From positions 1 to 64,000 of IMG/VR virus record IMGVR_UViG_3300001580_000017: DNA of 64,000 bases; one strand, given 5' to 3'. A program made the translations under genes and the position numbers. The notes below the pieces were generated by a model. That model was not told the origin of the DNA. It saw only the letters and a list, made by a program, of their open reading frames with translations, and made no database searches. Of the stretch, positions 12,335-55,252 are shown piece by piece (the first letter of the stretch is position 1; each line of letters starts with the position of its first letter). Source of the DNA: a virus. Its lineage: Duplodnaviria; Caudoviricetes.

Positions 12335-12342
12335 TATAAATA
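12335..12342 (+). promoter_or_regulatory. T4-type late promoter TATAAATA upstream of tnpB-1
   Basis: Exact octamer 7 nt before the ATG. Confidence 0.7.
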
Positions 12343-12348
12343 TATTAT

Positions 12349-13739
12349 ATGAAGACAATTAAACTGCCGCACATAATGAGCAAAGAAAATAATGATCTTT
12401 TGTGTAAATATAGAAGAGAACAATCTTCAGCAATTCGTTTTTCTTTTAATAGATTGGCAGAAAATAAAACCGACAAAGAAATTAGATCATTAATTAAATC
12501 ACTAAATTATAATCATATAGATTCATGGCTCAGTGTATGTTCTATTTTGAAAGCCAAACAATTTTATTCTACAGCAAAACAGCAAAAACAAAACAAAGTT
12601 ATTTTTGCTCGTTCCTCGTTTATAGAATTAAATGCTAAAAAAATAACAAAAGAAGAATTTAAACAAAAAAGACTGTTTAATTTGTGTATAGATGGTGAGG
12701 CTCTGTACAAAGGAAACAGAAAAGTTAATTTAAACATAGAAAAAAATAATTCTATAACTATAAAATTATCAAAAAAAGACCACATAGAAATAAAATTACC
12801 GAAATTAAAGAAATCTTTCAAAAGACAGTTATTATTATTATTAGAAAAGTTGGCAAATAACAAAATAATTCCTTTTAAAATAGAGTTAAATGAAAATTTT
12901 ATTTATTTTTCTTTTGAGTCAAACGAAATACAACGAAAGAAAAATATGCTAAAAAAGCCGCGACAAAAACGGAAATTAGAAAAAAAATTAATGATGAGTT
13001 AAAACTAATAGAAAGTCATCAATCAAAATTTATACTCGGTATAGATATGAATCCAAATTATATTGGATTATCGGTTCTAAAATTCTATAACCCAAATGAT
13101 AAAGATAGTTTTAAAATTATAGAAAAACAAGTCATAGAATTTACGGAATTAAATCAAAGAAAAAATAAAACATCAACAGAAAATATTTCCATAAATAATA
13201 AGAAAAAATTTGAAATTATTCAAGTAGTTCATAAAATAATTAAATTGGCAAAACATTATAATTGTTCTAAGATTGCAATAGAAGACCTTAATATAAAATG
13301 TGGTGATAGCAGAAAAGGAAAGAACTTTAACAGATTTTGTAATAATATTTGGCACAGGGAATTATTCATAAACAAACTAAAAATGTTGTGTACAGAATTT
13401 GGTATAGAATTAGTGGAAGTTAATCCTGTATATAGTTCTACTATAGGCAATATAAATTATGGAAATGAATATACACCCGATATGGTAGCTTCAAGTATTG
13501 AAGTTGCTCGTAGAGGATTTAATAAATATATAAAAGGATGGTTCTACCCAAAACTGATGATTAGAAATAAGCTAAACCAATGGAAGGAAGAGGTTGATTT
13601 TAGTCGGGGTTGGGTTGCTATCCACGAACAAATTAAAAAATCTAAAGTGAAATATAGGTTTCCTCTTGTTCCTGAGTTATTCCGTGAGGTTTTTAGAAAT
13701 AGTTCTGCAAAGAGTAAAGTTTTGGTTTATAAAACTTAA
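12349..13739 (+). mobile_element. tnpB: TnpB-related RuvC nuclease gene (no Zn finger), split by a -1 frameshift
   Basis: ORFs 12349..13002 and 13047..13739; the -1 frame gives ILGIDMNPNYIG, IAIEDL, VNPVYSSTIGN, DMVASSIEVARR; A AAA AAG at about 12950. Confidence 0.8.
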
Positions 13740-13753
13740 ATAGATTTGTATGA

Positions 13754-15094
13754 TTATTTTATTTTAAACTCGCCCATCGCTATAAATTCACCCATTGCTG
13801 TGTTTATATCTCCAAAGAATTGTTTGATGTCGCTATAGTTCCAGTAATCTTTCTTTGGATTCAGTGTCAGACCATATTTAATTATCCGGTGTAAATAATT
13901 TTTAAAAGAATTAAATCCAAACATTATTTCAGAAGCAACTTGAAAATCTGCGGGACTGTTTCCACTTGATTTTAATTTCGGCAAGAATACATCTTTTATT
14001 TTCGTTCCAATTTCTATTCCACTATCACTCATATACAGTAATTGATTTGGATAAGCATCTTTTAGAAACCAATTTACAACTGATATAGATTTTTTAATAA
14101 ATTTATCCACTTTCTTTTCAAATGAAGGATGTTCAATATCGGTATTTAAAATATCCAAATTCAATTCATTTAATTCTTTTAATTTATCAACCAGCATTTT
14201 TCCATTTGGTGCAAGAGTTCCCATTGGATAATCAATTTCCCCGGTATCAACAAATGTTTTAATATCAACTGCCATTCTCGTCTGTGTATCATTTATCATA
14301 ATACTTGGATCAGGATTATAACCTTCATCCATCAAACTTTTAAATATCTGTCTGTAAATAGGAATATCTTTCTTTTCATAGATGTAATTGTTTCCCCAAA
14401 GAAATAAATGGAAGTAACCATTTGCAACTTTTAAATCATATAATAGATCATATCCGGTGTGGTGTTCATCTCCTCGTGCAATTGGAATAAATGTTTTATT
14501 TTTTAAGTTAAACATTATATAACCAACTTCTTGGAATTTTCCTTTATTACTCGGATCGGTGTTATTTGCTATAAGAACTTTTGCTTCCCATTTTCTGGTA
14601 TCGTTCCAATCATCATTCATCTTATAGTCCAAAGGATTTACTTTTGGATCAAGTTTCCAGATTGATTTTGGAGAAGATTCTTTTAAATTCTTTTTATTTT
14701 CTTTCATTCCAACATATCCATCAATTTCAGTTAAACCTAATTCTGCCAAAGCATTTGCTCGGTGTGATCCATCTATAATATCATATTTTGTATATCCATT
14801 ATCACCCACAACTATCGGCAAATAATTTTTTGTTTTATTATACATTTTTATAAATTGTTCAACTTTAAAATCATCAAGACTAAATTCATCCAAATTTAAT
14901 TTATTTAATGGAATTTTTTGTTTTATAAAGTAATCATATTTATCGCAGTTGAAATTGCAATCTTCAATTTCTTCATCATCATAAACAGAATCGTGAATTG
15001 ATTCAATGTAGTCAGTTATTTCGCCGGGTTGTAATTTTTTTCCAATTGGTTCATCTTTTAATTCAACCGCTAAATCAATTTTCCAATTATTCAT
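13754..15094 (-). CDS. Two-domain late protein: ParB/Srx-like N-domain, LKES site, unknown C-domain
   Basis: LPIVV...IIDGSHRANAL. Confidence 0.6.
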   Translation of the reverse strand: MNNWKIDLAVELKDEPIGKKLQPGEITDYIESIHDSVYDDEEIEDCNFNCDKYDYFIKQKIPLNKLNLDEFSLDDFKVEQFIKMYNKTKNYLPIVVGDNGYTKYDIIDGSHRANALAELGLTEIDGYVGMKENKKNLKESSPKSIWKLDPKVNPLDYKMNDDWNDTRKWEAKVLIANNTDPSNKGKFQEVGYIMFNLKNKTFIPIARGDEHHTGYDLLYDLKVANGYFHLFLWGNNYIYEKKDIPIYRQIFKSLMDEGYNPDPSIMINDTQTRMAVDIKTFVDTGEIDYPMGTLAPNGKMLVDKLKELNELNLDILNTDIEHPSFEKKVDKFIKKSISVVNWFLKDAYPNQLLYMSDSGIEIGTKIKDVFLPKLKSSGNSPADFQVASEIMFGFNSFKNYLHRIIKYGLTLNPKKDYWNYSDIKQFFGDINTAMGEFIAMGEFKIK

Positions 15095-15551
15095 TGCTCT
15101 TATCCTTTAATGCTTTTAAAAAATTTGTAAGATACGAGGGACTAATTATTTTAATGTTTCTTCTGTTATTGTAATATTCAAACAGCATATTCTGATAACA
15201 TCTCAAAGAATATATATTGTATTCGGTGTACAAGGTATTCGCAAGTTCTAATATTTCTTTATCATTTAAAATCCAATCAAAAGGATTATTGATATCATTC
15301 AACATTAAAAATATCCACCAGAACTCAGTATTACCATATAAATTATAACTCAATTTATCCAACCTGCTGTCTTGGGGTACAATATAATCAATTATCCAAG
15401 CATTGTCAATCACATTCTTCCAGTTTTTCATCGAACTTAATTCTTTCATATTTAGAACTTGTGATTGATAGTAGTCGAATTTAATTCCATTCGTTTTATT
15501 ATATTCCGTCAGGTCTATTGTATTTTCTTTGAATAAATCGAAATAGTTCAT
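15087..15551 (-). CDS. gp53: Baseplate wedge protein, gp53-like
   Basis: RLDKLSYNLYGNTEFWWIFLMLNDINNPFDW. Confidence 0.9.
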   Translation of the reverse strand: MNYFDLFKENTIDLTEYNKTNGIKFDYYQSQVLNMKELSSMKNWKNVIDNAWIIDYIVPQDSRLDKLSYNLYGNTEFWWIFLMLNDINNPFDWILNDKEILELANTLYTEYNIYSLRCYQNMLFEYYNNRRNIKIISPSYLTNFLKALKDKSNE

Positions 15552-19682: not shown

Positions 19683-19705
19683 ATTAACTCCCTTTTGTTT
19701 TTATT

Positions 19706-19713
19706 TATTTATA
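19706..19713 (-). promoter_or_regulatory. T4-type late promoter TATAAATA
   Basis: Exact octamer upstream of gp26. Confidence 0.8.
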
Positions 19714-19731
19714 AAATTTTGAAAATAAATG

Positions 19732-19760
19732 TTGACAAGAATGAAAAGATTGTTTACCTT
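19732..19760 (+). promoter_or_regulatory. Early sigma70-like promoter
   Basis: TTGACA-N17-TACCTT followed by TCTATTGTAGTT, same as at the 8842 promoter. Confidence 0.8.
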
Positions 19761-19766
19761 TCTATT

Positions 19767-19835
19767 GTAGTTAAGTTTTCGGTTTTATGTTTTCATTTCC
19801 GAAAAATCCTGAGGCCTCTCCCCTTGGGATTTTTT
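19767..19835 (+). ncRNA. Candidate ~69-nt small RNA ending in a terminator with CCUCUC loop
   Basis: Stem AAAAATCCTGAGG/CCTTGGGATTTTT with G-U pairs and U-tail. Confidence 0.6.
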
Positions 19836-19865
19836 ATTTAATGAAGAAGATTTTAATCTTTTTCC

Positions 19866-19894
19866 TTGACAAATGAATTTTTATTTCGTATATT
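19866..19894 (+). promoter_or_regulatory. Early sigma70-like promoter
   Basis: TTGACA-N17-TATATT. Confidence 0.85.
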
Positions 19895-19922
19895 TCCTTC
19901 AACAATCAATCAGGAGAGAAAA

Positions 19923-20258
19923 ATGTTAAAAATTTATGGTAGAAGAACCAACGAAGCCAAAGCTCTGATGAAAGAATTGACAGAAGAGAACTATAAAGAA
20001 CAACTGATTGATAGAATAAACAAAAATGCAGAAAAACTCACAGAAGAAGTAAAAGCAAGAGATACACACGAAGAAATGATAAAGTGGTTTATTAAGGTAA
20101 TAGAACAGGATAAACAGCAAGTAACGCGGATGGTAGCAGAAGAAACTGGTGATATGTACTCTGCTTGCTGGGTGGTATTGGATGGAGAAAAAGACTTGAT
20201 AAAATTGTTAAACGATGATTATGGTTGGTATATCGAGGAACATCTCTCGCGAAAATAA
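19923..20258 (+). CDS. Hypothetical early protein
   Basis: GGAGAG SD and ATG at 19923; the track start at 19866 lies within the promoter. Confidence 0.7.
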   Translation: MLKIYGRRTNEAKALMKELTEENYKEQLIDRINKNAEKLTEEVKARDTHEEMIKWFIKVIEQDKQQVTRMVAEETGDMYSACWVVLDGEKDLIKLLNDDYGWYIEEHLSRK

Positions 20259-25599: not shown

Positions 25600-25651
25600 T
25601 ATTATCCTCTTTTTATTTTAATTAAATTATTCATACTAATTCTTTTATTAT

Positions 25652-25659
25652 TATTTATA
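25652..25659 (-). promoter_or_regulatory. T4-type late promoter TATAAATA
   Basis: Exact octamer upstream of gp13. Confidence 0.8.
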
Positions 25660-25676
25660 ATTTTAAATCTTTTTAC

Positions 25677-25705
25677 TTGACATTTAAACAAAGTTTGTGT
25701 ATATT
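25677..25705 (+). promoter_or_regulatory. Early sigma70-like promoter
   Basis: TTGACA-N17-TATATT. Confidence 0.85.
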
Positions 25706-25733
25706 TACTTCAATAGCAAAATAGGAGAGAAAA

Positions 25734-38421: not shown

Positions 38422-38450
38422 AATATACATAATTTTTATTCAAATGTCAA
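38422..38450 (-). promoter_or_regulatory. Early sigma70-like promoter
   Basis: TTGACA-N17-TATATT. Confidence 0.85.
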
Positions 38451-38468: not shown

Positions 38469-38476
38469 TATAAATA
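38469..38476 (+). promoter_or_regulatory. Late promoter TATAAATA upstream of tnpB-2
   Basis: Exact octamer 6 nt before the ATG. Confidence 0.7.
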
Positions 38477-38481: not shown

Positions 38482-39706
38482 ATGATAAGAACAAGCAAGC
38501 ATATATTAAAATTCGCTAACAAAAATAAATTAGATATGCTTGAACAAATTTATTCTGATTGCAAGAAACAAATTGAAGTTTATATTGATCAAATTGTATC
38601 CGATAAACTTGAATTAAAAAAGATGATGAGTAGTAAGTTATTATCAAATGAATATATCGAGCAATCTAAATGGAAACAAATGTGTTATGAACAAACATCA
38701 GAAATAATAAGAAGTCAGTATAAAAAAGCATCAAATAAAAGATTTAATGTTTACAAAAAGATTTATGCTAAATTAAAAGAACAAAATAGATATAATAAAT
38801 TTATATCAAAGAAATTCTCCGAGTTAAATTTAAAACCAATTCAAACCACGAAATACTTAACTAAACCGAAATTAAATAATATCAGTATTATTATTCATCC
38901 GGAATTACTAAATTTTACATCTGACTCCAACAACTTTGATTCTTTTGTGAGATTAACTGCACCATATAAAAAGAAAACAAATAAAATAAGAAATCACTAT
39001 CAAACCATCAATCTTCCAATCAAGTATCATTCTCAATCAAATAAATTTAGAACTTCTGGTTGGAAGTTAAAGAACTCTATTTCTTTGATCAAAGTCAATA
39101 ATAATTTCTATTTTGATCTATTTTGGGAGAAGGAAGAAGTTGTGAAGAAAGTAAAAGGAAAGCAAATAGGATTAGATTGCGGTTACAAAAAATTACTCAT
39201 TTCATCGGATAATAAAATTTATGATTTGGGTTTAGAAAAAATCTATGAGAAGTTATCAAGAAAGAAACAAGGATCAAAGAATTTTAAACAAGCTTTAACC
39301 GAAAGAGATAATCTAATAAATCAAAGTATAAACAAACTCGAAACAGAAGAAATAAAAATAATTGTAGTTGAAGATTTAAAGAATGTAAAGGCAGGAAGTA
39401 AGTTTAGTAAAAAATTTAACAATAAGCTACAGAGATGGAGTTATCCAAAGGTTTTGAATAAACTATCTATGATTTGTGAGGAACAAGGTATTAATTTAGT
39501 TAGAGTTGATCCTGCTTATACAAGTCAAACATGTAGTGGGTGTGGATTTAAAGATAAAGACAATCGTAAAGCCGAGAAGTTTTTATGTTTGGGTTGTGGA
39601 TATGAAACTGATAGTGATTATAATGCTTCAGTGAATATTCTACATAGAGGCATATATAGTTCCTCTACCGAGAATAATAAAGCTAATTTAAAGGTTAGCT
39701 GACTGT
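38482..39706 (+). mobile_element. tnpB: TnpB-only element (CDS 38482..39702) with right end at GACTGT
   Basis: GLDCG, VVEDL, CxxC..CxxC, DSDYNA; 3' end shared with tnpB-3 up to 39706. Confidence 0.9.
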
Positions 39707-39792
39707 GAATCAAAATCGAATTTATAATTTTCAGATGATAAATACTGCTCGATGAGTGCTGTTGCTAAATTTCTTGCATCAATTAGATTCAT
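39688..39792 (-). pseudogene. Truncated SprT-like gene start interrupted by the tnpB-2 element
   Basis: MNLIDARNLATALIEQYLSSENYKFDFDS then runs into element sequence. Confidence 0.5.
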
Positions 39793-40769: not shown

Positions 40770-40786
40770 GCTTTTTGTTGAGAAAA

Positions 40787-40813
40787 ATAAAAACCCATCG
40801 AAAAAGATGGGTT
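40787..40813 (-). terminator. Intrinsic terminator
   Basis: AACCCATC/GATGGGTT stem plus T-run. Confidence 0.8.
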
Positions 40814-40845
40814 GTAGAGTAGTGATGCTAAATAAATTTTATTTA

Positions 40846-41346: not shown

Positions 41347-41364
41347 TTTAAATCCTTTTCTCTT

Positions 41365-41372
41365 TATTTATA
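41365..41372 (-). promoter_or_regulatory. T4-type late promoter TATAAATA
   Basis: Exact octamer overlapping the upstream stop codon. Confidence 0.7.
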
Positions 41373-42270
41373 AAATATCCAAAAAAGTTTCTTTGGTTGG
41401 TTCGCCATCTAATATATATGGTATGATTTCTTTGTAATTTAATTTATCCATACAGTAATCATAAATTTTTGGATGAGTAGTTTTCATTTTATCAAACCTG
41501 TTGGGGCAACCATCTTTTTGTAAGCCGTATAAACACCACATACAGCCAGTTCTCGTGTATCCCTTATCGTAAATAGAAGAATATTTTAAATTATATTTTT
41601 TAATATATTCCCATATATCTGTTTCATTCCAAAACGACAACGGTGCACTCGTGGCTCTTTTCTTGTCAAAGGCATTACACCCATATTTGATCCATTGCAT
41701 TTTTCTCATTTCTGATTCTGATGCCATTGTTCCAATAATAGGATGAACTTCGTTTTCTTTTTCATAATTTTTCAGTGGATTTTTCTTTAAATAATCACAG
41801 CATTTATCGCTGATTTTGAATGGAGCATCTAAAAGAAACATCCATTTTTTTGAAACTGATCCTCTTCCACCATTAGTTCTGTATAATCTTAATTTTTCAC
41901 TTTTGGTGTTTCTTGCTTCATCAATATAATTAGATTGTTCCTTACTCACAACGGGATATCCATATTTTTCTATTATTTTGTTGAATGGTACTTTCGGTTT
42001 AATTATATCAACATTTGGAACGGTATTAACAAATTCCACTATTTCTGGAAATTCTAATCCCGTGTTACAAAAAACTGCTTTCATGTTTGGATAAATTCTT
42101 CGACATAAATGTAGCAGAACAGTAGAATCTTTTCCTCCAGAGAAAGAACAGTAAACATCTCCCTTGAAATGTTCATAAAACTCTCTTATTCTTAATAAAG
42201 TTTTTTGTTCTTTTATTTCTAATGGAAGCTTAAACATCCACTGATTACTACTTTTTTCTGTTGCCATCAT
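41368..42270 (-). CDS. PAPS-reductase-family (PP-loop, Fe-S) protein
   Basis: SFSGGKDS, NTGLEFPE, CCDYLKK, RTGCMWC; ends TFLDIL. Confidence 0.88.
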   Translation of the reverse strand: MMATEKSSNQWMFKLPLEIKEQKTLLRIREFYEHFKGDVYCSFSGGKDSTVLLHLCRRIYPNMKAVFCNTGLEFPEIVEFVNTVPNVDIIKPKVPFNKIIEKYGYPVVSKEQSNYIDEARNTKSEKLRLYRTNGGRGSVSKKWMFLLDAPFKISDKCCDYLKKNPLKNYEKENEVHPIIGTMASESEMRKMQWIKYGCNAFDKKRATSAPLSFWNETDIWEYIKKYNLKYSSIYDKGYTRTGCMWCLYGLQKDGCPNRFDKMKTTHPKIYDYCMDKLNYKEIIPYILDGEPTKETFLDIL

Positions 42271-42277
42271 TTTTCCA

Positions 42278-44587: not shown

Positions 44588-44630
44588 AAATGAATTTCCT
44601 TATCTACAATATTATTTTATTTAATTTTTA

Positions 44631-45269
44631 TTAACTATTCAGTTTTTGAAGTGCCACCATCTTTAAAGCTCGTATTTCTGTTGGTGTAAATTCAGAAATA
44701 ATCTCCGTTGTGTTGATATCCGGAGTTTTAAAAATAAAAGGTCTGTTTCTCACTGTGCTATAAAATTCTCCATCTTTTCCGAACATCGGTGATCCCAATT
44801 TAACTTCCACCCCAATTTCACCGAATCCCGGATAAGCTCCGCATTTATTTGTACTGATGAGATAATATTCTCCACTCGCTTTTGCATAGGTAATACTGTC
44901 TTGCCAATTCATTGTTCCGAGTACAATTAAATGGTTTTTTAATTTTCCTGTATCTTTTATATCAACCACAAATAAACTTTTTTCTCTTACACGAATTTCT
45001 GGTAAAGTTTCATGTTTAAAAATTTCAATATAGAAACCATCAATATCAGTTACAGAATACCCCAAACCAATTAAAATTGCTCTCAGTTCTCGGTGATTAT
45101 CCATTTTCTTTTTATATGGTATTCTTATTTTATCTTCGCCACATCCTTCATAAGTTCTAAAAGCACTTATAGTTCCACAATCAGGGTTCTTTGCAAAATC
45201 ATCCAATCTTCTGAGACTGCTTTCTTTAATACTTTTGCTACAATACATTTTTAACAATTTTTCATTCAT
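44631..45269 (-). CDS. Putative internal protein
   Basis: Leader ...SKSIKES; GTISAFR...QDSI pattern. Confidence 0.55.
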   Translation of the reverse strand: MNEKLLKMYCSKSIKESSLRRLDDFAKNPDCGTISAFRTYEGCGEDKIRIPYKKKMDNHRELRAILIGLGYSVTDIDGFYIEIFKHETLPEIRVREKSLFVVDIKDTGKLKNHLIVLGTMNWQDSITYAKASGEYYLISTNKCGAYPGFGEIGVEVKLGSPMFGKDGEFYSTVRNRPFIFKTPDINTTEIISEFTPTEIRALKMVALQKLNS

Positions 45270-45283
45270 TCATTTGTTCTCCT

Positions 45284-46300
45284 TTAAAAAATCAATTTCT
45301 CGTATCTGTTGTAAGATAAACCCAATGTATTCATTAAAACCATTATTTCCCACAAACATTGCTTATCTTCTGCTCCACCAATTATAGTTGCTCCATCAAA
45401 ATCTTTTAAAATATTAAAATCAAAATTTGGAAGTGCTATAACGATATCTTCATTTTTTAATTCTGTTTTTATTTTATCGGGAAGTTCCATGTTTTGAATA
45501 TCTTCATCAGTCAATTCATCAGTGGAGAAATGATAGTTATTCATCAGATACAATAATATAGCTTGAATGTATTCCTCTGCTACATTATTATCAAGATCAC
45601 GAATAAATCCATAACCCTTTTCAACCCAAATAATCCTATTCAAAAATTCATCCATTTCTTCACTGAAATCATTCGCAGAATTTTTTATCCAGTTTTTGAT
45701 ATCATGTTCTTTATCCAAATTCATCAAAGTTCCATTATAGAAGTAAATAATATCGCCCTTGAATTTTTTCAAAGATAAAGCGAACTGCTCTGGGGTAAAT
45801 CCAAATCCTTTCGTGTATTGAGGTTGAATATCCACAACAATTAGTTTATCGCCGGTTATCTTGAAATAACTGTTTCCGTGAATAATGTTTTGATCCTTGG
45901 CAAAACGAATTATATCAATGTAATCTTTTGCTATTTTTGATTCCATTATTTCTTGAGCGATTGGAGAATAAAATCCATTTTGCGCTTTACCATGAAAATC
46001 CAAAGGTGTGATTGTATATCCATCCCAATTAAAATCTTTTTCCACTATATCAGGAAGATAGCCAAAACATTTTTCTATATCAGGTATTCCATAGCCAGTG
46101 ACCAAGTATAAATTTCCGTTATTTGTGTTGAACATAAACCTGCCACTATTTCCTATGAATATTTTTAGATAAATATTTCCGGGGATAACCTGAATGGTGT
46201 CTGGAGATTTATCGATGTTTGTGTCTTTCTCATTATACTTTAATATTTTTTGAGAAAGCTGGGTTATAAATTTATCAAACTCGGATTTAAACTTCATCAT
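45284..46300 (-). CDS. Two-domain late protein with internal IMES site
   Basis: 338 aa in late operon. Confidence 0.55.
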   Translation of the reverse strand: MMKFKSEFDKFITQLSQKILKYNEKDTNIDKSPDTIQVIPGNIYLKIFIGNSGRFMFNTNNGNLYLVTGYGIPDIEKCFGYLPDIVEKDFNWDGYTITPLDFHGKAQNGFYSPIAQEIMESKIAKDYIDIIRFAKDQNIIHGNSYFKITGDKLIVVDIQPQYTKGFGFTPEQFALSLKKFKGDIIYFYNGTLMNLDKEHDIKNWIKNSANDFSEEMDEFLNRIIWVEKGYGFIRDLDNNVAEEYIQAILLYLMNNYHFSTDELTDEDIQNMELPDKIKTELKNEDIVIALPNFDFNILKDFDGATIIGGAEDKQCLWEIMVLMNTLGLSYNRYEKLIF

Positions 46301-46481
46301 TTGTGTAGGTTTTATTCTCCATATAATTTTTCATAGCTTTCATCCAGTTGTCTGCTATATCATTTATTACTTTAGCATCATAATCTGTAACAAACAACCC
46401 GCCAGTATATTCTTCCCAAAAAAGAGAATTTTGGGCTTTTATTTTTGTTGTTGGAGATTGTTTGCTTGGCTTAGTTTTCAT
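46287..46481 (-). CDS. Small late protein
   Basis: Start moved to MKTK, downstream of TATAAATA at 46487..46494. Confidence 0.45.
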   Translation of the reverse strand: MKTKPSKQSPTTKIKAQNSLFWEEYTGGLFVTDYDAKVINDIADNWMKAMKNYMENKTYTNDEV

Positions 46482-46486
46482 ATCAT

Positions 46487-46494
46487 TATTTATA
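46487..46494 (-). promoter_or_regulatory. T4-type late promoter TATAAATA
   Basis: Exact octamer. Confidence 0.7.
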
Positions 46495-46511
46495 ATAATT
46501 TCTTCCATAAT

Positions 46512-47480
46512 TTACAAAAATTTAAGATTATTCGCCAAATGTACCAAACAAGCTCGAAGTATAATTAATGAGTCTGTACATATTCCATTATCAGCTACAT
46601 ATTTTCCAAGTATTAAAGTTGCTTTGGATATGTTTTCGTCATCAGATTGAATTATGTTATACATTATACTATCGAACTCTCGGAAGAATGTGTTGGCATC
46701 TGTATCTATTGCAATTTTTCTCAGTTCTTTTATATTTTTTGATTTCAGGGCAGAAACCAGTTCATCTGTTACACCCTTTCCCATATCAAGAATTTTGGCA
46801 TCAACTTTTGACCGATTATACATTATGCTATACTGATGAAGGGTTGCAATTGTCTTTCTGAAATCTGGAAATTTTTGAATAATTAGTTTTTGAATTACAT
46901 CTTCGTCATATTCAATGTTTTCATTTTGCAGAATATAAAATAATCTTTTTCTGAATGCCAAAGCAAGCTGTCCACGTTCTTCTCTGTTAGCTGGTATCAG
47001 ATTGAATAATCCTTGAGATAATCTTGATCTGAGTGGTTCTATGATAGCAGATTCATTGTTTGTACTCAATATGAATCTTGCCACATGTTCAAGTTCCTCT
47101 ATTGTAACTTTAAGGGACATCTGCAAAGCTGGTGTCATTTGCTCCGCTTCATCAATGTAAATGAGTTTGTATTTGAATGTTTTATCGGCATCGGCGTAGG
47201 TACTGGCATATTTAATAATTTTATCCAGATTGGCTATTCCTCTATCTTCCCTGCTTGATCCGTTTAGATACATCATATCAGCATTTAATTCTGTTTGAAG
47301 CACTTTGACAAGTGTAGTTTTTCCTGTTCCCGAATTTCCATATAAGAGCATGTTCGGAAGATTTTGTTCTTTGATACAACTCTCAAAATAATTTCTGATA
47401 TTGTTTGTGAGTATGCAGTCCTTTAGTGTTGGTGGTCTCCATTTCTCTACCCATATGCTTGTGTCAGTTGTTTCTTTCAT
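46512..47480 (-). CDS. gp44: Clamp loader ATPase subunit, gp44-like
   Basis: WVEKWRP, GNSGTGKTT, IDEAE, PLRSR, FPDFRK. Confidence 0.93.
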   Translation of the reverse strand: MKETTDTSIWVEKWRPPTLKDCILTNNIRNYFESCIKEQNLPNMLLYGNSGTGKTTLVKVLQTELNADMMYLNGSSREDRGIANLDKIIKYASTYADADKTFKYKLIYIDEAEQMTPALQMSLKVTIEELEHVARFILSTNNESAIIEPLRSRLSQGLFNLIPANREERGQLALAFRKRLFYILQNENIEYDEDVIQKLIIQKFPDFRKTIATLHQYSIMYNRSKVDAKILDMGKGVTDELVSALKSKNIKELRKIAIDTDANTFFREFDSIMYNIIQSDDENISKATLILGKYVADNGICTDSLIILRACLVHLANNLKFL

Positions 47481-47490
47481 AATTATCCTT

Positions 47491-47838
47491 TTAAAATTTT
47501 TGTAAATATATTGTTTTGTTTAAGTTTTCTGCGAGTTTCAGTGAATGTTCTGTTCCTTTAGACCCGCCGATCCAAAAAGCGAAAACCACATCACAATTTT
47601 CTATGATATCTTTATTTCTAACAAAACCCGCCCGTCTTCCAAATTTTTCCCATTCCGGTTTGAATATAAGTTTTTTTATTTTAAACTCATTCGCAAAAAT
47701 TTCACCAAGTGTATCTGCTCCATTTGCTCCACCAGAAATAATTAATTCTATCTCATTTACATTAACATTTTTTTGAATGAAATCTTTTAGTTTCTGATAA
47801 TCATTAAAATTTCTTGATCCGATAATAGCAACTTTCAT
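47491..47838 (-). CDS. SLOG-family (YspA/DUF2493-like) protein
   Basis: IIGSR, SGGANGAD, AGFVRN. Confidence 0.85.
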   Translation of the reverse strand: MKVAIIGSRNFNDYQKLKDFIQKNVNVNEIELIISGGANGADTLGEIFANEFKIKKLIFKPEWEKFGRRAGFVRNKDIIENCDVVFAFWIGGSKGTEHSLKLAENLNKTIYLQKF

Positions 47839-48282
47839 TTAAAAATCCTCCCCCGCAAGATATCTCAAATAATCTAATTTGTTCTTAATATCAAATCTCT
47901 GATCATTTAATAAGCCTTGTATTCTATGAACGAATGTAGTTGTTAAATCCACTGCATCCATAAAATTTTTATAGCTTATCATAACTGCATCACTATCCAG
48001 CTTTTTTTCTATTTCTTTTTCACTCATGGTATAAACATTTACGTCTTTTATTGAAAAATATTTTATGCTACGAATTTTTTTATATTCAGTATCGAGTGCA
48101 GTCTGAATCTTTTTCCATTTATTATAGTGAGTTAACCAATTTTGAATTTTTGAACAGTTGTTAAAATTTTCTTCCATATCAGAATTTATAACCAAATCTT
48201 GAATAGCTTGTTGCTCAAGTTTTTTTAATTCGGTGTATATCTGTTCGATTTTTTCTGTTGGAATTGCCTTTATTTCTTGCAT
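47839..48282 (-). CDS. uvsY: Recombination mediator
   Basis: Helical protein ending LRYLAGE; lies near uvsW. Confidence 0.7.
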   Translation of the reverse strand: MQEIKAIPTEKIEQIYTELKKLEQQAIQDLVINSDMEENFNNCSKIQNWLTHYNKWKKIQTALDTEYKKIRSIKYFSIKDVNVYTMSEKEIEKKLDSDAVMISYKNFMDAVDLTTTFVHRIQGLLNDQRFDIKNKLDYLRYLAGEDF

Positions 48283-48309
48283 TTTCCCTTCCTTTTTGTT
48301 TGTAATGCT

Positions 48310-48338
48310 AAGTTAATACTAATTTTTATTTTTGTCAA
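48310..48338 (-). promoter_or_regulatory. sigma70-like promoter
   Basis: TTGACA-N17-TAACTT. Confidence 0.75.
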
Positions 48339-48354
48339 GAGTTTTTTAGCTTTT

Positions 48355-48675
48355 CTACATATAATCTTCTTCCAAAACTTCTTCCATATCCCTATTTGTT
48401 TTCCATAAAACTTTTCCGGATGAATCTTTTAATGAAATGAAATAATCAAAATCTTCTGTTCCATTAAGAGCGTCAATATAGTCCAATAATTTAATAGTTT
48501 CACTTTCCGGTGTTAAATTAAAATCAAGATAAAATCTGTCTATATATGCATAACCATAGAATAAACTACACATCATCAAAATTGCTTCATTATCGGTATC
48601 AGCTTCAAATAAAATATTATCAACCATATCTTCCATATTACATTCAAATGGAACTATTTCTAAAACATATCTCAC
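48355..48675 (-). CDS. Acidic hypothetical protein
   Basis: GTG start overlapping the uvsW stop. Confidence 0.5.
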   Translation of the reverse strand: MRYVLEIVPFECNMEDMVDNILFEADTDNEAILMMCSLFYGYAYIDRFYLDFNLTPESETIKLLDYIDALNGTEDFDYFISLKDSSGKVLWKTNRDMEEVLEEDYM

Positions 48676-50150
48676 AGCAAATTGACCTCTTTTATTTCTA
48701 CAGGATAACCCTCTGTTTCGTATATATGCAATCTTTCTTTATGATGTTTCATTATGTAGTTTGTATAGTGTTTTTCGCTTAAACAAAGATCATCATTGAT
48801 ATCCCATACAGTTAAACGATCCTTTTTCTCGTGCATCCTTAATCCTCTACCTATGGTCTGAATAACTCTTATAAAACTTTTTGTGCTATGAGCCAAGAAT
48901 ATATGATGAATATTTTTTATATTTATTCCTGTGCTGAATGTTCCATAAGAAGCAAGTATAATTAAGTTATCTTCTTTTTCCGCAACAAATCTCGATTGTT
49001 CTCTTATATCAATATCAACGCCACCATCAATATACAGTATCTTTTTATCTGGAAATCGTTGTTTAAATAAATCTAATAAAACTTTTCCATGCTTTTCTAT
49101 ATACTGAAATAGAACCAATGTATTTTGCGTTCCACAATTTTCTTTTATTGTGTTTACAAGATACTCATTTCTGCGATCACTCTTCATCAAATAATCTATT
49201 TCATCATGATAATTTCTGCTAAATTCATCAGCAGCCATAACTCTTTCAGAATGGGGATATCTTAAAATAACAGAATAAACCATCATATCTGCTAATATTT
49301 TTGCTTCTTTTAATTCTTCATAAGTTCTATAGAATACCGGTTCTCCGATGTAACCAACAGCAGAATAATAATCAATGTTTTTATTTTGCGGAAGTGTTCC
49401 TGTAGTTCCTATCCGATATTCCGCTTTTTTTAGTTTTGAAAGAATTTCGGCTATTATTTTTGAATTTACTTTTGCTTTATGAACTTCATCAACAATCACA
49501 CAATCAAATTTATCTAATTCTTCCTCTGATAACCGGTGAATACTTTGCCATGTGGAAATTATAAGAGGATATTCACCAAAACTTTTTTCTACCCCACCAG
49601 AGATACATTTTAAATTATCTCCATCATATCCATAGCTTATGAGATCAGATTCCATTTGTTTTATCAGACCAAGTTCTGATACAATCAATAAAGTTTTTTT
49701 GTTTAAATAGTTCATAAAAAAATTTATGAAGTGGATAATTGCAGATTTTCCTGTGCCTGTTTTTGAAATTATACATATATTTCTTTTCTTGATTGCATCA
49801 AAAAATGCTTCTATCTGAAAATCGTGGGGCTCCCAAGGAAAGGGAACGGTATCAAGAAATTCCAGAAGTTTATCTTCATTAATTTTTCTTTCAATTAAAA
49901 AATCTATAGTGTAACTGTAATTGTTTTTTGTTATAAAATCCAATAGTCTGGGAGTAAAACCAATCGGAAGTTTTCCTTGCTTGAATAGGGTAATTTTTCC
50001 ATCCCATATTCCTTGCTTATATTTAGGAGAAAACCAATATTTGTCGGTAATAAAACTGAAATGGTTTTTTATTCCTTCATAGATATTAACATCAAAGGTT
50101 TTAATTGCTATTTCAGCATGATTTATTTTAGTTATGGTTATGTCTGACAA
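48672..50150 (-). CDS. uvsW: SF2 DNA helicase
   Basis: TGTGKS, DEVH, GTTGT, STGIN, QTIGRGLR. Confidence 0.93.
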   Translation of the reverse strand: MSDITITKINHAEIAIKTFDVNIYEGIKNHFSFITDKYWFSPKYKQGIWDGKITLFKQGKLPIGFTPRLLDFITKNNYSYTIDFLIERKINEDKLLEFLDTVPFPWEPHDFQIEAFFDAIKKRNICIISKTGTGKSAIIHFINFFMNYLNKKTLLIVSELGLIKQMESDLISYGYDGDNLKCISGGVEKSFGEYPLIISTWQSIHRLSEEELDKFDCVIVDEVHKAKVNSKIIAEILSKLKKAEYRIGTTGTLPQNKNIDYYSAVGYIGEPVFYRTYEELKEAKILADMMVYSVILRYPHSERVMAADEFSRNYHDEIDYLMKSDRRNEYLVNTIKENCGTQNTLVLFQYIEKHGKVLLDLFKQRFPDKKILYIDGGVDIDIREQSRFVAEKEDNLIILASYGTFSTGINIKNIHHIFLAHSTKSFIRVIQTIGRGLRMHEKKDRLTVWDINDDLCLSEKHYTNYIMKHHKERLHIYETEGYPVEIKEVNLL

Positions 50151-50157
50151 AATTTTC

Positions 50158-50898
50158 CTAATTGTTTAATTTTGTGACTAATTCTCTCCCCAATGGAATA
50201 ACTTTTATAATATCCTCATCTTTTGCTTCGCCCCAGTAAGTAGCATATCCATTTATAGGATTAAAAATGAAATCCGTAGCCTTATCCCATTCTCTGTATG
50301 CTTCATTGTTTCCGCTTCCCCATATCGCACTTTCAATATCTCCAACAATTTTTGTGAGTTCACTGTGTGATTGCTGTTCTTCGTTTATAAAATCCTGATA
50401 TTCTTTTATTGTGTTGTTGCTTTCTCTTAAAGATTTGAAGTCAATATATTTTATTTTATATTCAACACTTTCATTGAACAATACATCTTGACTGATATCT
50501 TTTAATGTTGTGGGCTGAATTGAATCTTTCGTAGTTATCCTCACCTGATATTTTCCATTTTCTTTATTTTTTAGCATTTCATTAGCAAAGTGAAACAGAT
50601 AATCTTTTATTTTTTTAGTTAATTTGGAAGTCTGAATTGACAAGACCATTTCTCTTCCATACTTTCTGATCCTAACCCAACCTTTATTCATTAAATCTTT
50701 TACAAGAATTTCTCGCGCTTTTCCATCCCAACCGAGAGGCTCTTTATATTTTTTGAATAAACCTTGAACATAATCAGAATCAAAACCAAAGTATTCAGGA
50801 TTTGATACAATATCTCCGACATGGCGACTACTTTCAACGGCAGTCACCACACCAAAGGGAGAAATCCAATATGCATCTGCCGTGTTATTGAATGTCAT
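50158..50898 (-). CDS. Putative internal protein
   Basis: AYWISP...GWVRIR domain; FNES, LRES, INEE sites. Confidence 0.55.
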   Translation of the reverse strand: MTFNNTADAYWISPFGVVTAVESSRHVGDIVSNPEYFGFDSDYVQGLFKKYKEPLGWDGKAREILVKDLMNKGWVRIRKYGREMVLSIQTSKLTKKIKDYLFHFANEMLKNKENGKYQVRITTKDSIQPTTLKDISQDVLFNESVEYKIKYIDFKSLRESNNTIKEYQDFINEEQQSHSELTKIVGDIESAIWGSGNNEAYREWDKATDFIFNPINGYATYWGEAKDEDIIKVIPLGRELVTKLNN

Positions 50899-50900
50899 TG

Positions 50901-51305
50901 TTATTCCGGATAGACACTATTTGCCATATCGGAACTATAAATTGATCCAGCAGAAGCTATTACATAATCTTTTAAATATGTTTCGTTTTCCGTGAATAAT
51001 TCTTCTGCTTCTTCTTGTGTTAGACCATCAACATGTACCAATTTATATATTACAGCTTCCATAAAATCATAAATCATGTTCTCATAAATGCCATCTTCCA
51101 AGTATTCAAATGTCTGATTACTTCCAAGTGCAGGTGCACCATCACTTTCTGGGTCTAATTCCGGATAATTTAGATAGATTACTTTAACATCAACTAAATC
51201 TTCGTTTGAATATGTTTTGATCATATATGGATATCTTTCAGAATTTTCATTCTCAGTAACCATGTTCTCGTAAATTTTCAAAACATCTTTTTCTTTCGTT
51301 GTCAT
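50901..51305 (-). CDS. Putative internal protein
   Basis: Leader ...IYENMVTE. Confidence 0.5.
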   Translation of the reverse strand: MTTKEKDVLKIYENMVTENENSERYPYMIKTYSNEDLVDVKVIYLNYPELDPESDGAPALGSNQTFEYLEDGIYENMIYDFMEAVIYKLVHVDGLTQEEAEELFTENETYLKDYVIASAGSIYSSDMANSVYPE

Positions 51306-52244
51306 TTAGTTCTCCACGGGAAATATTAATTTATACATGTATTCTTCATCTTTTTCTTCAGTTGGATACCAGACTTCTTCGATATCACCACCATCATCAT
51401 ACTTCACATAAACATCATTTGCGGGGCTATAACCAGTTATGAGTGCTTTGAACATAACTTTTTTAACATCATCATATTCTTCAACTCTGGTGTATTCCTT
51501 GCCAAATTCTTCTTCTGCTTTGATTGTCTCGACTTCTCCGAAAGTTTTATTTCTTTCATCATAATCTTCGGTTGTCAATTCTTCATAATTTTTTATATAT
51601 TCACCTGATCCGAGATATGGAGTTTCTGTATCGTATAACAATCTTTCTTCAAGTTCTATCATATTATCGGCAGTAGTCAACAGAAGAAATTCTAATACAG
51701 TTCCGAGCATGTGTCTGTGAGTTAAAAAAGCATCATCAACCAACCATTCATCACTATCATCGGAATATCCGGGAATAAATCCTGATCGGCTTTTGTAAGT
51801 TTCTTTTATATATTCAGCAAATTCTTCTGAATACTGATCAAGCATACTTTTAATTTTTTCGATATTCGCTGGTTCTAAATGAATATCAACATCAATGGAA
51901 TCATTTGCGAAATTATACTCTTTGGGAGAAACTAATTTGGTAAACATTACTTTTTTAACTAAACCTTGTTCTTGCAGCATTACTTCTACTGTATCTACCA
52001 AATTTGAAGCATAATCATTTTTATACTTAGTGTAATCATAATCAATTAAATCGTCATCAATTTTTCCGATTAGATCATTCTGTTTTCTGATAGCGTTTAT
52101 ATCATTTGCAATTTCTTTGTAATCTTCATCACTTGTTTCAAATGATGTGTTATAAAATCCGGGAAAGACCGGAAGCCATGATTCAACTACAAGAAATTTT
52201 CCCATATCCATTGCGTCTTCTTTTACGAGTTTGTTTTTTTTCAT
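51306..52244 (-). CDS. Putative internal protein
   Basis: Leader MKKNKLVKE; SPKEYNF motif. Confidence 0.55.
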   Translation of the reverse strand: MKKNKLVKEDAMDMGKFLVVESWLPVFPGFYNTSFETSDEDYKEIANDINAIRKQNDLIGKIDDDLIDYDYTKYKNDYASNLVDTVEVMLQEQGLVKKVMFTKLVSPKEYNFANDSIDVDIHLEPANIEKIKSMLDQYSEEFAEYIKETYKSRSGFIPGYSDDSDEWLVDDAFLTHRHMLGTVLEFLLLTTADNMIELEERLLYDTETPYLGSGEYIKNYEELTTEDYDERNKTFGEVETIKAEEEFGKEYTRVEEYDDVKKVMFKALITGYSPANDVYVKYDDGGDIEEVWYPTEEKDEEYMYKLIFPVEN

Positions 52245-53674
52245 TTTCTCTCCCCAACACTTCCGGCAAATTTTAAAAATTTATATTTTCTTTTCCATTC
52301 ATCCAGCATTCCTTGTAATTCTTCTGATGTAAATTCGTTTGATATGCCATAAGAATCTGATATATTTTTTTCTCTTGGTATTTTACTATTGGAACAATAA
52401 TCCGATCCTACCCATACACGATTGTTAAATTTTTCAAATTCGGCTATCAAATTATCTGATACTTTGCTATATACTTCAACAAATTGCCCATGACTTTGTT
52501 TTTCATATGCCGATTCTTCATCAAATATTGATTCTTTTATTTTTTTCTTTGTCTCCATGAAATCATATTCTTGATTCGCAAAGGCATCTTCAAAATCTTG
52601 TGCCAGCAGTTTACAAGCTTCGTCTTTAACTTCTTTTGTTACTGCTTTAACTATGCTCTTACCGTCATCTGCCCATTTTACGGTCTCATCATACCAAAAT
52701 TTAGCCGCATTATTTACAACAGTTTTGAATATGATCGGAGCTTTTGCTTTATCATAAATATCGCTTTTCTTTTTTCTTGTGAGAGATTTAAAACAAGCAA
52801 TTTTGGTGTCGTAGAATTTTTTTGTATTATCAACAACCAGTACGACATCATCAGCATCGGCAACATAAGTGTCAAATCCTTTTTCTTCTTTCAGGAGAGT
52901 AGTCAGAATTTCTTTTTGTTCTTTTATGTTTTTTGACAGTGATTCTTTTACTGATGGAGTTGATTCTTCCAAATTATATTTATCAGCATTATGATTATGA
53001 ACTCTTTCAAAGGTCTTATCATCAAAATAAGTACTCGATTTCAGATTGCCGTTAACTGGTCTTTTTCTATAAAGTTCATAAACACCCTTTTCTTTCAGAT
53101 GTCTCATTCCATAGTTAGACATTGAATCACCAAAGAATTTCATTGTTTTGTGATCAAAGAAATGTGAACCAGTTAAACCCACATTGTATTTTAAATCAGC
53201 AACGGTTCTTACTGGATAAAAATCAATTGTTTTTTCTTCGTTTATTGCATCACTTTTCCATATAGGACTTCCAGTGTTACCCCAACTACTGCCATCTTTG
53301 TCTTTTTCCCATACTTCTACATAAACATCTTCCATTTGATTCTCTGCATATCTTTTTGCCATTCTGATAGCACTTTCTGGTGTTCTTGCATATTCGGTGT
53401 TTATACATTCATCTCCATCTACTGTATAAACAAATACACCGTATTTATAGTAATCAAAATCGCCGTCTTTTGCTTCATCGCCATGCTTAGATTCTTCATT
53501 CAGCTTAGAATAAAATTCTCTTTTTCTCGTCACATTCAGTTCATTTACATTCTTAACACCGAAACTTCTAAGTAGCGATGTATATTTATCAGAATAAGTA
53601 TCTTTGACCTGTTCCGATTCGTTCAATTTATCAACAACGCGGTAGTAATCTTGTAAATCTTTGTTTTGTTCCAT
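52241..53674 (-). CDS. Multi-domain internal polyprotein-like protein
   Basis: LNES, LNEE, INEE, LEES, VKES, LKEE, IKES sites separate segments. Confidence 0.6.
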   Translation of the reverse strand: MEQNKDLQDYYRVVDKLNESEQVKDTYSDKYTSLLRSFGVKNVNELNVTRKREFYSKLNEESKHGDEAKDGDFDYYKYGVFVYTVDGDECINTEYARTPESAIRMAKRYAENQMEDVYVEVWEKDKDGSSWGNTGSPIWKSDAINEEKTIDFYPVRTVADLKYNVGLTGSHFFDHKTMKFFGDSMSNYGMRHLKEKGVYELYRKRPVNGNLKSSTYFDDKTFERVHNHNADKYNLEESTPSVKESLSKNIKEQKEILTTLLKEEKGFDTYVADADDVVLVVDNTKKFYDTKIACFKSLTRKKKSDIYDKAKAPIIFKTVVNNAAKFWYDETVKWADDGKSIVKAVTKEVKDEACKLLAQDFEDAFANQEYDFMETKKKIKESIFDEESAYEKQSHGQFVEVYSKVSDNLIAEFEKFNNRVWVGSDYCSNSKIPREKNISDSYGISNEFTSEELQGMLDEWKRKYKFLKFAGSVGERK

Positions 53675-53699
53675 TTTTCTTTGTCCTTTTAATTTATTT

Positions 53700-53754
53700 A
53701 TTATTATTTATAAAAGTCATACCCCAAATATACCATTATTATTTATAAAAGTCA
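53700..53754. repeat. 20-bp direct repeat ATTATTATTTATAAAAGTCA, each copy containing a minus-strand late promoter
   Basis: Copies at 53700..53719 and 53735..53754. Confidence 0.8.
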
Positions 53755-53815
53755 AGAATAATTTAATTTATTTTGAAAATAGTTAAAATAATTTTATGAC
53801 CCCCATCAAAAATTT

Positions 53816-53823
53816 TATAAATA
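53816..53823 (+). promoter_or_regulatory. Late promoter TATAAATA upstream of the IS607-like element
   Basis: Exact octamer. Confidence 0.7.
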
Positions 53824-53839
53824 AGGTTATAGAATAATT

Positions 53840-54052
53840 ATGGAAGAAATTATGAAAAAATTATCAGAATATGCAACTGAACACAACATCACATATCGTA
53901 CCGCATGGAATCATTTTGCGCGAGGATTAATTAGTGGAGCATATCAGCTATCAAATGGCACAGTAGTTATACCGGACAGCAATACTGCCGATTTAGAAAA
54001 AGCTATACATGATTTAAAAAATATAATTACAGAATTAAAAAAAGATAAATGA
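53840..54052 (+). CDS. IS607 TnpA-type HTH domain only (no serine recombinase domain)
   Basis: KLSEYATEHNITYRTAWNHF..G....AYQLSNGTVVI; ATGA overlap with tnpB. Confidence 0.8.
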   Translation: MEEIMKKLSEYATEHNITYRTAWNHFARGLISGAYQLSNGTVVIPDSNTADLEKAIHDLKNIITELKKDK

Positions 54053-55252
54053 TAAGAAGAAGCAAACACATACTAAAATTCGCGAACAAAAATAAATTGA
54101 GTATGCTTGAACAAATTTATTCGGATTGCAAGAAACAAATTGAAGTTTACATTGATCAGATAATATCAGGGAAATTAGAGTTAAAGAAGATGCCGAGCAG
54201 TAGGTTGTTGAGTAATGAATATATCGAACAATCTAAGTGGAAAGAAATGTGCTATCAACAAATGACAGGAATGATTGGAAGTCAATATAAACGCGCATCC
54301 AATAAAAGATTTAATTCTTATAAAAAAGTTTATGCTAAACTAAAAGAACAAAATAGATATAATAAATTTACTTCAAAAAAATTCTCGGAATTAAATTTAA
54401 AACCAATCTATCAAACAAAATATTTTACTAAACCAAAATTAACTGGTGTAAATATAATAGTACACAAAGATTTATTTAATTTTGCATCGGATTCTAAAAA
54501 TTTTGACTCCTTTGTTAGATTAACTACTCCATATAAAAAATCAGCAGGAAGATACAAAACAATAAATCTTCCAATTAAATATCATTCTCATTCCAATAAA
54601 TTTAGAACGAGTGGTTGGAAATTAAAGAACTCTATTTCTTTGATCAAAGTCAATAATAATTTCTACATTGATTTGTTATGGGAAAAAGAAGTCCCCAAGA
54701 AGATTGAAGGAGAATCCATCGGATTAGATTGTGGTTACAAGAAGCTACTTATTTCATCAGAGAACAAAATTTATGATTTGGGTATGGAAAAAATTTATAA
54801 CAAACTAAACAGAAAGAAACAAGGAAGCAAAAACTTTAAGCAAGCATTAACCGAAAGAGATAATTTAATAAATCAGAGTATAAACAAGATTGAAACAGAA
54901 AATATAAAAACAATCGTAGTCGAAGATTTAAAAAATGTAAAGTTAGGAAGTAAGTTTAGTAAAAAATTTAATAACAAGCTACAGAGATGGAGTTATCCAA
55001 AGGTTTTGAATAAACTATCTATGATTTGTGAGGAACAAGGAATAAACTTGGTTAGAGTTGATCCGAGTTATACAAGTCAAACATGTAGCAAATGTGGACA
55101 CAAAGATAAGAAAAACCGTTCTGGTGAACGGTTTTTGTGTTTGAGTTGTGGAATGGAGATGGATGCTGACTATAATGCATCTATAAACATTTTACATAGA
55201 GGCATATATAGTTCCTCTACCGATAAAGCTAATTTAAAGGTTAGCTGACTGT
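54049..55252 (+). mobile_element. tnpB: IS607-like TnpB (CDS 54049..55248) with right end at GACTGT
   Basis: GLDCG, VVEDL, CSKC..CLSC, DADYNA; close paralog of tnpB-2. Confidence 0.9.

Follow-up and report, generated by a model that had tools for sequence, protein, structure and literature searches.

This work describes TnpB-type modules carried by a T4-like phage, three of which (E1, E2 and E3) lie in the stretch of DNA analyzed here. This stretch, referred to as the window, corresponds to positions 1 to 64,000 of a virus record of 75,065 bp with ∼30% G+C (IMG/VR record IMGVR_UViG_3300001580_000017, here G000). Nearly all genes of the 75-kb contig lie on the − strand; its only real + strand genes are the three TnpB units, a 103-amino-acid (aa) gene with an early promoter upstream, and a homing-endonuclease-like gene at 68270-69970. 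The contig encodes a Gp23-type major capsid protein, a tail protein, replication genes and, on the − strand at contig positions 67232-67993 (L001:3232-3993), a 253-aa homologue of the late sigma factor gp55 (E values of 4e-11 to T4 gp55 and 1e-25 to phrog_234). Because of this gene content, the phage is best placed in the T4 superfamily, as a distant member that lacks any close relative in culture. A second JGI record (G001, 87.7 kb) and ENA contigs of 128 and 71 kb derive from the same phage, so that the genome size would be about 200 kb; CheckV puts G000 at 40% and G001 at 47% of a genome, and together they cover 163 kb. In all, the phage carries eight TnpB modules, five of them outside the window (C4, C7, C2p, C5 and C6).

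E2 and E3 encode intact proteins, in which the Cas12f1-like TNB domain (PF07282) was detected with E values of 2e-19 and 7e-22. The RuvC residues (D232, E297 and D379 in E2; D227, E292 and D374 in E3) and four zinc-finger cysteines arranged as two CxxC pairs (C351/C354/C369/C372) are invariant across 14 sequences. A profile of this clade also matched solved Cas12f and TnpB chains in the Protein Data Bank with an E value of 2e-22. Judged by the RuvC D-E-D triad in combination with the zinc-finger/TNB domain, the E2/E3 clade is of the TnpB type. Together with the five copies outside the window, E2 and E3 form one well-supported clade with a star-like interior, and its seven members occupy seven different loci. 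Ratios of nonsynonymous to synonymous divergence (dN/dS) fall between 0.10 and 0.17 in all 21 pairs, at a dS of 0.7 to 1.3 and a nucleotide identity of ∼80%. The seven copies are old paralogues, each under purifying selection.

The likely ancestry of this clade can be read at E3 and C5. At E3, tnpB is preceded by a stub whose alignable part shares 65 to 81% identity with the N-terminal heads of serine recombinases of ∼190 aa that have a Resolvase domain. The alignment reveals an internal in-frame deletion that removes the whole catalytic domain, including the YARVSS catalytic-serine region, and keeps the C-terminal tail. C5 has the same stub architecture (remnants of 68 to 70 aa across the two copies), and its stub is still open despite its divergence from the E3 stub (dN of 0.34, synonymous sites saturated). 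The other five copies carry neither the stub nor most of the left end. These features indicate that the seven-copy clade is IS607 derived, with TnpA (the transposase) reduced to a probable DNA-binding stub in E3 and C5 or gone altogether. The sequence-only reading on which this analysis followed up had stated that all three TnpBs lack an intact transposase, and this was borne out: Y1 transposase (PF01797) and serine recombinase (PF00239) domains are absent from G000 and G001. Under the IS607 rule, GG forms the end of the element and also marks the site at or after which it inserts (PMC13565253). Here, the right end reads ...GCTGACTGT, finishing in CTGACTGT rather than GG, and GG stands at the putative left junction in some copies only. 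Two intact IS607 units, each consisting of TnpA (194 and 191 aa) and TnpB, were observed at L009:6001-7765 and L009:11317-12585, within 12 kb of a phage-like contig seen in many samples. Over the aligned part, the head of an intact 194-aa IS607 TnpA is 81% identical to the stub; its partner TnpB is only 31% identical to E2.

Upstream of all three units in the window lies the motif TATAAATA, on the + strand at 12335, 38469 and 53816 and thus against the direction of most genes, as had been noted before; all three occurrences are intergenic, and each stands ahead of a + strand TnpB-type unit, at 6, 5 and 16 nucleotides (nt) from the first ATG, respectively. The window contains 25 copies of TATAAATA, compared to 13.9 ± 3.6 in shuffled sequences. 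Across the contig, 19 of 30 copies are fully intergenic even though intergenic DNA makes up 5.7% of its length (binomial P of 6e-17), and shuffled intergenic DNA would be expected to hold 3.2 ± 1.8. Intergenic copies have a longer form, AAATTTTATAAATAA, in common. Those on the − strand are located 18 to 33 nt ahead of an ATG with a clear Shine-Dalgarno sequence in between, and one of them precedes the gp23 gene. A second, distinct promoter class (TTGACA-17-TATATT) constitutes the early-type promoters. Given the intergenic enrichment, the copy upstream of gp23, the encoded gp55 homologue and the separate early class, TATAAATA is in all probability a genuine T4-type late-promoter signal.

The earlier proposal that the TnpBs sit directly behind late promoters holds for E1 and E2. 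At 53816, the promoter instead precedes the transposase remnant, not tnpB; the conserved MKKLS start of this unit is the second ATG, and the resulting 28-nt gap is ordinary late-gene spacing. Among the seven paralogues, all five short copies have TATAAATA 5 to 7 nt ahead of ATGATAAGA, and both stub-bearing copies (E3 and C5) have TTTTATAAATAAGG upstream of the stub open reading frame (ORF). The motif stands at the same 5- to 7-nt distance in three outgroup relatives (64 to 70% identity) from other metagenomes, each of which is alone, antisense to all neighbors and with no transposase gene called beside it. Because the motif is kept in the seven paralogues and in these three relatives, the late promoter most likely belongs to the elements themselves. 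In T4, the late motif spans positions −13 to −6. With a motif 5 to 7 nt from the ATG, this rule predicts that transcription of the short copies starts on the AUG or no more than 2 nt away from it, yielding leaderless late mRNAs. The coordinates of all features are collected in Table 1.

Table 1. Features of the three TnpB-type modules in the window
Feature	Position	Strand	Remarks
Late-promoter-type motif of E1	12335..12342	+	6 nt before ATG; no Shine-Dalgarno
E1 N-terminal ORF, 217 aa	12349..13002	+	Aligns to residues 1-207 of the intact 465-aa relative P0122
E1 C-terminal open frame	12918..13739	+	Annotated ATG at 13047; RuvC codons D 13044-13046, E 13281-13283, D 13479-13481
E1 frameshift site CTA AAA AAG	12949..12957	+	1-nt deletion relative to intact relative; A_AAA_AAG slippery heptamer in frame at 12951-12957
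Sigma-70-type early promoter (TTGACA-17-TATATT)	38422..38450	−	Back to back with E2 late motif; reads outward into ligase operon
Late-promoter-type motif of E2	38469..38476	+	5 nt before ATG; no Shine-Dalgarno; predicted leaderless mRNA
E2 tnpB, 406 aa, intact	38482..39702	+	RuvC D232/E297/D379; zinc finger
E2 predicted guide-RNA (omega RNA) scaffold	39417..39706	+	Overlaps tnpB 3' end; stops at right-end boundary ...GCTGACTGT
E2 predicted guide, copy-specific flank	39707..39726	+	
Late-promoter-type motif of E3	53816..53823	+	16 nt before first ATG; 28 nt before conserved MKKLS start at 53852
E3 IS607-type serine transposase TnpA remnant, 70 aa	53840..54052	+	Helix-turn-helix head and C-terminal tail; catalytic domain deleted in frame
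E3 tnpB, 399 aa, intact	54049..55248	+	82% identical to E2; start overlaps stop of remnant (ATGA)
E3 predicted guide-RNA scaffold	54963..55252	+	
E3 predicted guide	55253..55272	+	Overlaps −10 hexamer (55271-55266) and the stretch just downstream of − strand sigma-70-type promoter (55294-55266)

At the other end of the element, all seven copies share the same right end, located 4 to 10 nt beyond the stop codon and followed by full divergence. Synonymous identity among the copies peaks at 0.89 in codons 311 to 330, compared to ∼0.65 elsewhere, and the scaffold region contains blocks of >50 nt that are invariant across copies. A consensus fold of the last 290 nt was derived from 10 sequences (the seven copies and the three relatives). 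In this fold, 95% of cells are paired, compared to ∼40% with partners slid. Compensatory pairs number 15, compared to 7.3 ± 1.8 in shuffles, and none of 500 shuffles reaches 15. Deriving the fold from these very sequences inflates the contrast. Since covariation and synonymous constraint occur together, the ∼300-nt 3' region is best read as a guide-RNA scaffold. Neither the window nor the 3' regions of E2 and E1 matched any Rfam family, RAGATH-18 included, whether gathering cutoffs or E-value thresholds were applied.

The 20 nt past each right end match their own locus only; allowing up to 4 mismatches, no second target was found elsewhere in the genome. The C6 guide is an exception, recurring with one mismatch 120 nt downstream (L006:10971 and L006:11091) within the same 394-nt intergenic region. 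Guides that match only their own flank constitute the arrangement needed for cutting an empty allele, and the data support such a setup. No orphan right ends were found in the window, and within IMG/VR only G001 of this phage has them. A 34-aa ORF at the E2 guide (39688-39792) was considered as a SprT-like stub; this was not borne out, as it gave no Pfam match even at an E value of 10.

E1 departs from this description. The sequence-only reading had called all three modules TnpBs, with RuvC triads that appear intact. E1, however, belongs to a different family (PF27229, SSO2105_N type) in which the zinc finger is absent, replaced by a short loop. The D, E and D codons are indeed present in E1, E2 and E3, but a frameshift breaks the E1 gene itself into two ORFs, of 217 and 230 aa, that are read in different frames. 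The stretch 12349-13739 aligns end to end with the uninterrupted 465-aa protein P0122 only if a −1 frame shift is allowed, with 70% identity over the C-terminal query. The 230-aa downstream product is also called on 6 contigs. Because the first RuvC aspartate lies upstream of the ATG of the second ORF, neither ORF is a nuclease by itself. Compared with the intact relative, the N-terminal part has a dN/dS of 0.27 and the C-terminal part one of 0.16. Programmed −1 frameshifting was considered and rejected: the heptamer is canonical and in frame, but loss of 1 nt from an A7 run yields the same sequence, and no convincing downstream stimulator was seen by eye.

The E1 family is large, with members of 430 to 465 aa that carry PF27229, reside mostly on large phage contigs and often occur several per genome. 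A structural model of the family (predicted local distance difference test score of 75) gave full-length Foldseek matches to Cas12f, Cas12k and TnpB structures, with E values from 7e-10 to 4e-5; E1 is thus modeled as a TnpB/Cas12f-like fold with a RuvC triad. The closest relative of E1 (L008) adjoins a portal gene on another T4-like contig and has TATAAATA 5 nt before its ATG, compared to 6 nt in E1, whereas in more distantly related members from other phages the ATG is preceded, at 6 to 7 nt, by a sigma-70-type −10 box. As such, a promoter placed at the ATG would seem to be a trait of the E1 family, with the promoter class following the resident phage. Some E1-family genes are open only with in-frame TGA read as a residue (L113 and L124, both on one IMG/VR contig) or with TAG read in this way (L115 and L116), which suggests that L113, L124, L115 and L116 come from stop-codon-recoded phages. 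Another member of the family, L114, is also frameshifted.

Taken together, these observations are compatible with a reading to which we give roughly even chances: that the eight transposase-less, late-promoter TnpB modules persist as RNA-guided homing nucleases of the phage. Each module would be transcribed late from its own T4-type promoter, read by the phage gp55 sigma factor, at a time when many genome copies are undergoing replication and recombination. For the short copies, the predicted transcript start is the AUG or its immediate vicinity. About 300 nt at the 3' end of the transcript would fold as the scaffold and run on into ∼20 nt of neighboring phage DNA, thereby forming the guide RNA. 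The TnpB-RNA complex would then cut the same locus in a co-infecting relative without the insertion, and T4-type recombination repair (recombination-dependent replication) would copy the element in from the occupied genome. Such a process may be called non-restorative homing, analogous to that of the free-standing Seg and Mob homing endonucleases. Most copies lie antisense, which would protect them from transcriptional read-through early in infection, and the − strand early promoter that abuts the left end of E2, C2p and C4 could restart transcription of downstream phage genes. For this uncultured phage, we infer late timing, cleavage and homing from element anatomy, selection on protein and RNA, promoter conservation and the absence of transposase domains, which were observed directly; homing between co-infecting phages is plausible on these grounds.

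Several points weigh against this reading. At the level of expression, the gap of 5 to 6 nt between promoter and ATG leaves no room for a ribosome-binding site, and the protein yield from this layout may be low. The + strand motif at E2 lies within the upstream A/T-rich region of the − strand early promoter. Part of the resemblance at the E2 promoter therefore reflects promoter consensus rather than descent, since the site at 25600-25733 has the same double-promoter cassette and no TnpB. The break in E1 is taken to be a recent, possibly leaky inactivation. The sequences ahead of the left ends, where the element boundary is ambiguous, gave no confident reading of a shared target-adjacent motif (TAM); GG precedes the region of similarity at E2, C2p and C4, in a reading made after the fact. 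Five sequencing runs contain the phage (a 2013 hydrocarbon metagenome and one 2025 run), none of them listed as RNA, and ∼13% of the estimated genome lies outside the JGI records covered by the transposase search.

Homing also predicts empty sites, and the check on relatives found neither an empty allele nor an occupied/empty polymorphism. No close backbone relatives were found, so there are no empty sites to compare: the best ligase match in IMG/VR has 28% identity, no nucleotide match exists in the phage collection, and full-length helicase matches in metagenome contigs stay at ≤38%, with one fragment of 225 residues reaching 56%. Contigs of four runs placed against 37000-56500 consist of short pieces and chimeric paralogue joints with no joint cleanly skipping E2 or E3, and are uninformative on empty alleles. 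A suspected polymorphism at C7 between the JGI and ENA assemblies was rejected, as the ENA contig carries C7 too. Public short-read contigs join E2 to E3 at 38623/54301 and 39360/54903; these look like assembly chimeras formed via the paralogous tnpB genes and are a caution for assemblies of this phage.

The distribution of the copies constitutes a further difficulty. Since one clade occupies seven loci, the lineage must at some time have moved to new sites, which homing alone does not explain. E3 and C5 share the catalytic-domain deletion yet are not sisters in the tree, which, together with the seven loci, implies that the lineage was still arriving at new loci once its own catalytic domain had been lost. 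The route could have been a transposase acting in trans, gene conversion between copies or another route. As such, the suggestion that the modules spread by recombination rather than transposition can describe only part of their history.

These observations lend themselves to an account in which the modules are ordinary insertion sequences mobilized in trans by a serine transposase encoded in the host, in a co-infecting phage or in the portion of the phage genome that was not sampled, with the stub and ends serving that transposase and the late promoter incidental to mobility. The single clade at seven loci and the deletion shared by non-sister copies, which suggests spread after the deletion, fit this account. 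Intact IS607 units with a TnpA head so similar to the stub do exist on other phage-like contigs, and several left ends may begin right after GG, as the IS607 target rule would have it (PMC13565253). The age of the copies tells a different story, in that no two are similar and nothing has moved recently at the dS and identity values given above. The stub and most of the left end, which would serve such a transposase, are missing from five copies, neither transposase domain was found in the 163 kb, and the right end is not GG. On this balance, we regard mobilization in trans as quite improbable. Even less credence is due to the view that the motif is positioned without being a functional promoter and that the modules are inert passengers, on the grounds that TATAAATA-like strings are common in intergenic DNA of 30% G+C and upstream of early promoters. 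The reverse complement of the motif does occur just upstream of the TTGACA box at E2, 25652 and 67151, E1 and E2 have no ribosome-binding site, and E1 is broken. But C6 and C7 have the motif with no divergent early promoter, and its 5- to 7-nt spacing is kept in the seven paralogues and three distant relatives amid diverged DNA. By our own estimate from shuffle frequencies, the chance of finding the motif ≤25 nt from three given ATGs is ∼2e-8. The dN/dS values, moreover, exclude inert genes, and we consider this view very improbable.

Another account is that the TnpB set has been domesticated for the phage, such that any protein could load any guide, the scaffold being almost invariant, and the ensemble would act as a multi-guide weapon against insertion-free competitors, with exclusion rather than copying as the main payoff. 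In its favor, purifying selection on the seven copies has been strong and long lasting, the scaffold blocks are invariant across copies, the guides lie in phage backbone DNA, and homing endonucleases double as competitor killers (PMC13565253). This account makes the same predictions as selfish homing and is inseparable from it here; no competitor genomes with targets were found, and E1, being frameshifted, shows that the phage can do without one of its copies. We treat domestication as a doubtful possibility. A broader proposal, which we likewise offer tentatively and think rather unlikely, is that the TnpB lineage is a permanent, phage-adapted resident, wired to gp55 via leaderless promoters, and multiplying to new loci without a cis-encoded transposase, as the catalytic deletion appears to predate the seven-copy radiation. 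Seven near-identical proteins and scaffolds would draw on seven pooled guides and so form a dispersed, array-free RNA-guided weapon and drive between phages, and the stub would be kept as a DNA-binding regulator.

Homing by the eight modules, the reading set out above, would have a counterpart in T4 itself. The T4 homing endonucleases (Seg, Mob and I-TevI) are expressed late. They resemble the modules described here as selfish nuclease genes placed between phage genes under late-promoter control, and the same genome contains the 68270-69970 gene behind the same motif. In contrast to Seg and Mob, RNA rather than protein would recognize the target, and self would be told from non-self by the presence of the insertion rather than by sequence polymorphism. 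With IS607 elements, the modules share the stub, the order of TnpA followed by TnpB with overlapping stop and start, the Cas12f1-like TNB domain and the right-end guide RNA. They differ from IS607 in having lost either the catalytic domain or all of tnpA and in a right end that finishes in CTGACTGT; no RAGATH-18 or other Rfam family matches, and a phage late promoter is present; the copies are also old, diverged and confined to phage genomes.

IS200/IS605 TnpB, in ISDra2 and Geobacillus elements, reportedly acts as an RNA-guided homing nuclease, as work by Karvelis in 2021 and Meers in 2023 is said to describe. The likeness extends to the RuvC nuclease and to a guide taken from the flank at the right end, such that cutting would be confined to the empty allele, the occupied one being immune. 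In IS200/IS605 systems and plasmid drives, however, the partner is a sister chromosome or plasmid copy and TnpA is normally present, whereas in this phage the arena would be co-infecting phage genomes, the late timing would be phage programmed, and no TnpA was found. An IS605 gene drive in plasmids works with a dead TnpA (doi 10.1101/2025.02.20.638934). TnpB homing is established for IS605 and IS607 in bacteria, the IS200/IS605 case having been reviewed (PMC13565253), and spread between co-infecting phages is, in the papers searched, a theoretical proposal only (PMC13565253). A further comparison is offered by the TldR proteins, which are likewise transposase-less TnpB relatives residing in phages. 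These proteins lack the RuvC catalytic residues. Since D-E-D is invariant in the E2/E3 clade, a repressor role is not favored for it. TldRs have been described as nuclease-dead, TnpB-derived RNA-guided repressors, some of them phage encoded (doi 10.1101/2023.11.30.569447).

In the papers searched, TnpB modules that lack a transposase and follow a late promoter were not described for T4-like phages. The phage offers a concrete natural case, in which eight modules have defined guides, a well-marked right end and a promoter specific to the phage, and in which the transposase can be seen decaying. Such a case would link T4 homing endonucleases with the obligate mobile element-guided activity (OMEGA) nucleases, and it suggests how RNA-guided nucleases may settle in viruses as a step toward phage-encoded Cas12-like systems. 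The compact pairs of TnpB and guide RNA also provide ten natural variants usable for testing.

A back-to-back early promoter at the left end is found in C2p and C4 as in E2, and the double-promoter cassette also occurs at 25600-25733. A repeated promoter cassette is present at 25600-25733, 38344-38481 and 19683-19925, each with a strong early-type promoter and a common upstream part (GATTTTAATCTTTTTACTTGACA-17-TATATT). At the first two sites, the late motif TATAAATA lies back to back on the opposite strand. At the right flank of E3, the − strand sigma-70-type promoter at 55294-55266 (11 of 12 matches) reads into the element and would transcribe E3 antisense, and a − strand terminator-like hairpin lies within E3 tnpB at 55111-55136.

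Two observations concern the contig beyond the window. A + strand copy of TTTTTATAAATAAAGATAT at contig position 67151 aims into the gp55 homologue from its downstream side, and no + strand gene follows it. The homing-endonuclease-like gene mentioned above (contig 68270-69970; L001:4270-5970) lies between those for gp55 and gp23 and encodes a 566-aa DUF7487 protein (phrog_3339) on the + strand, with a late motif upstream at contig position 68227 and a normal Shine-Dalgarno sequence.

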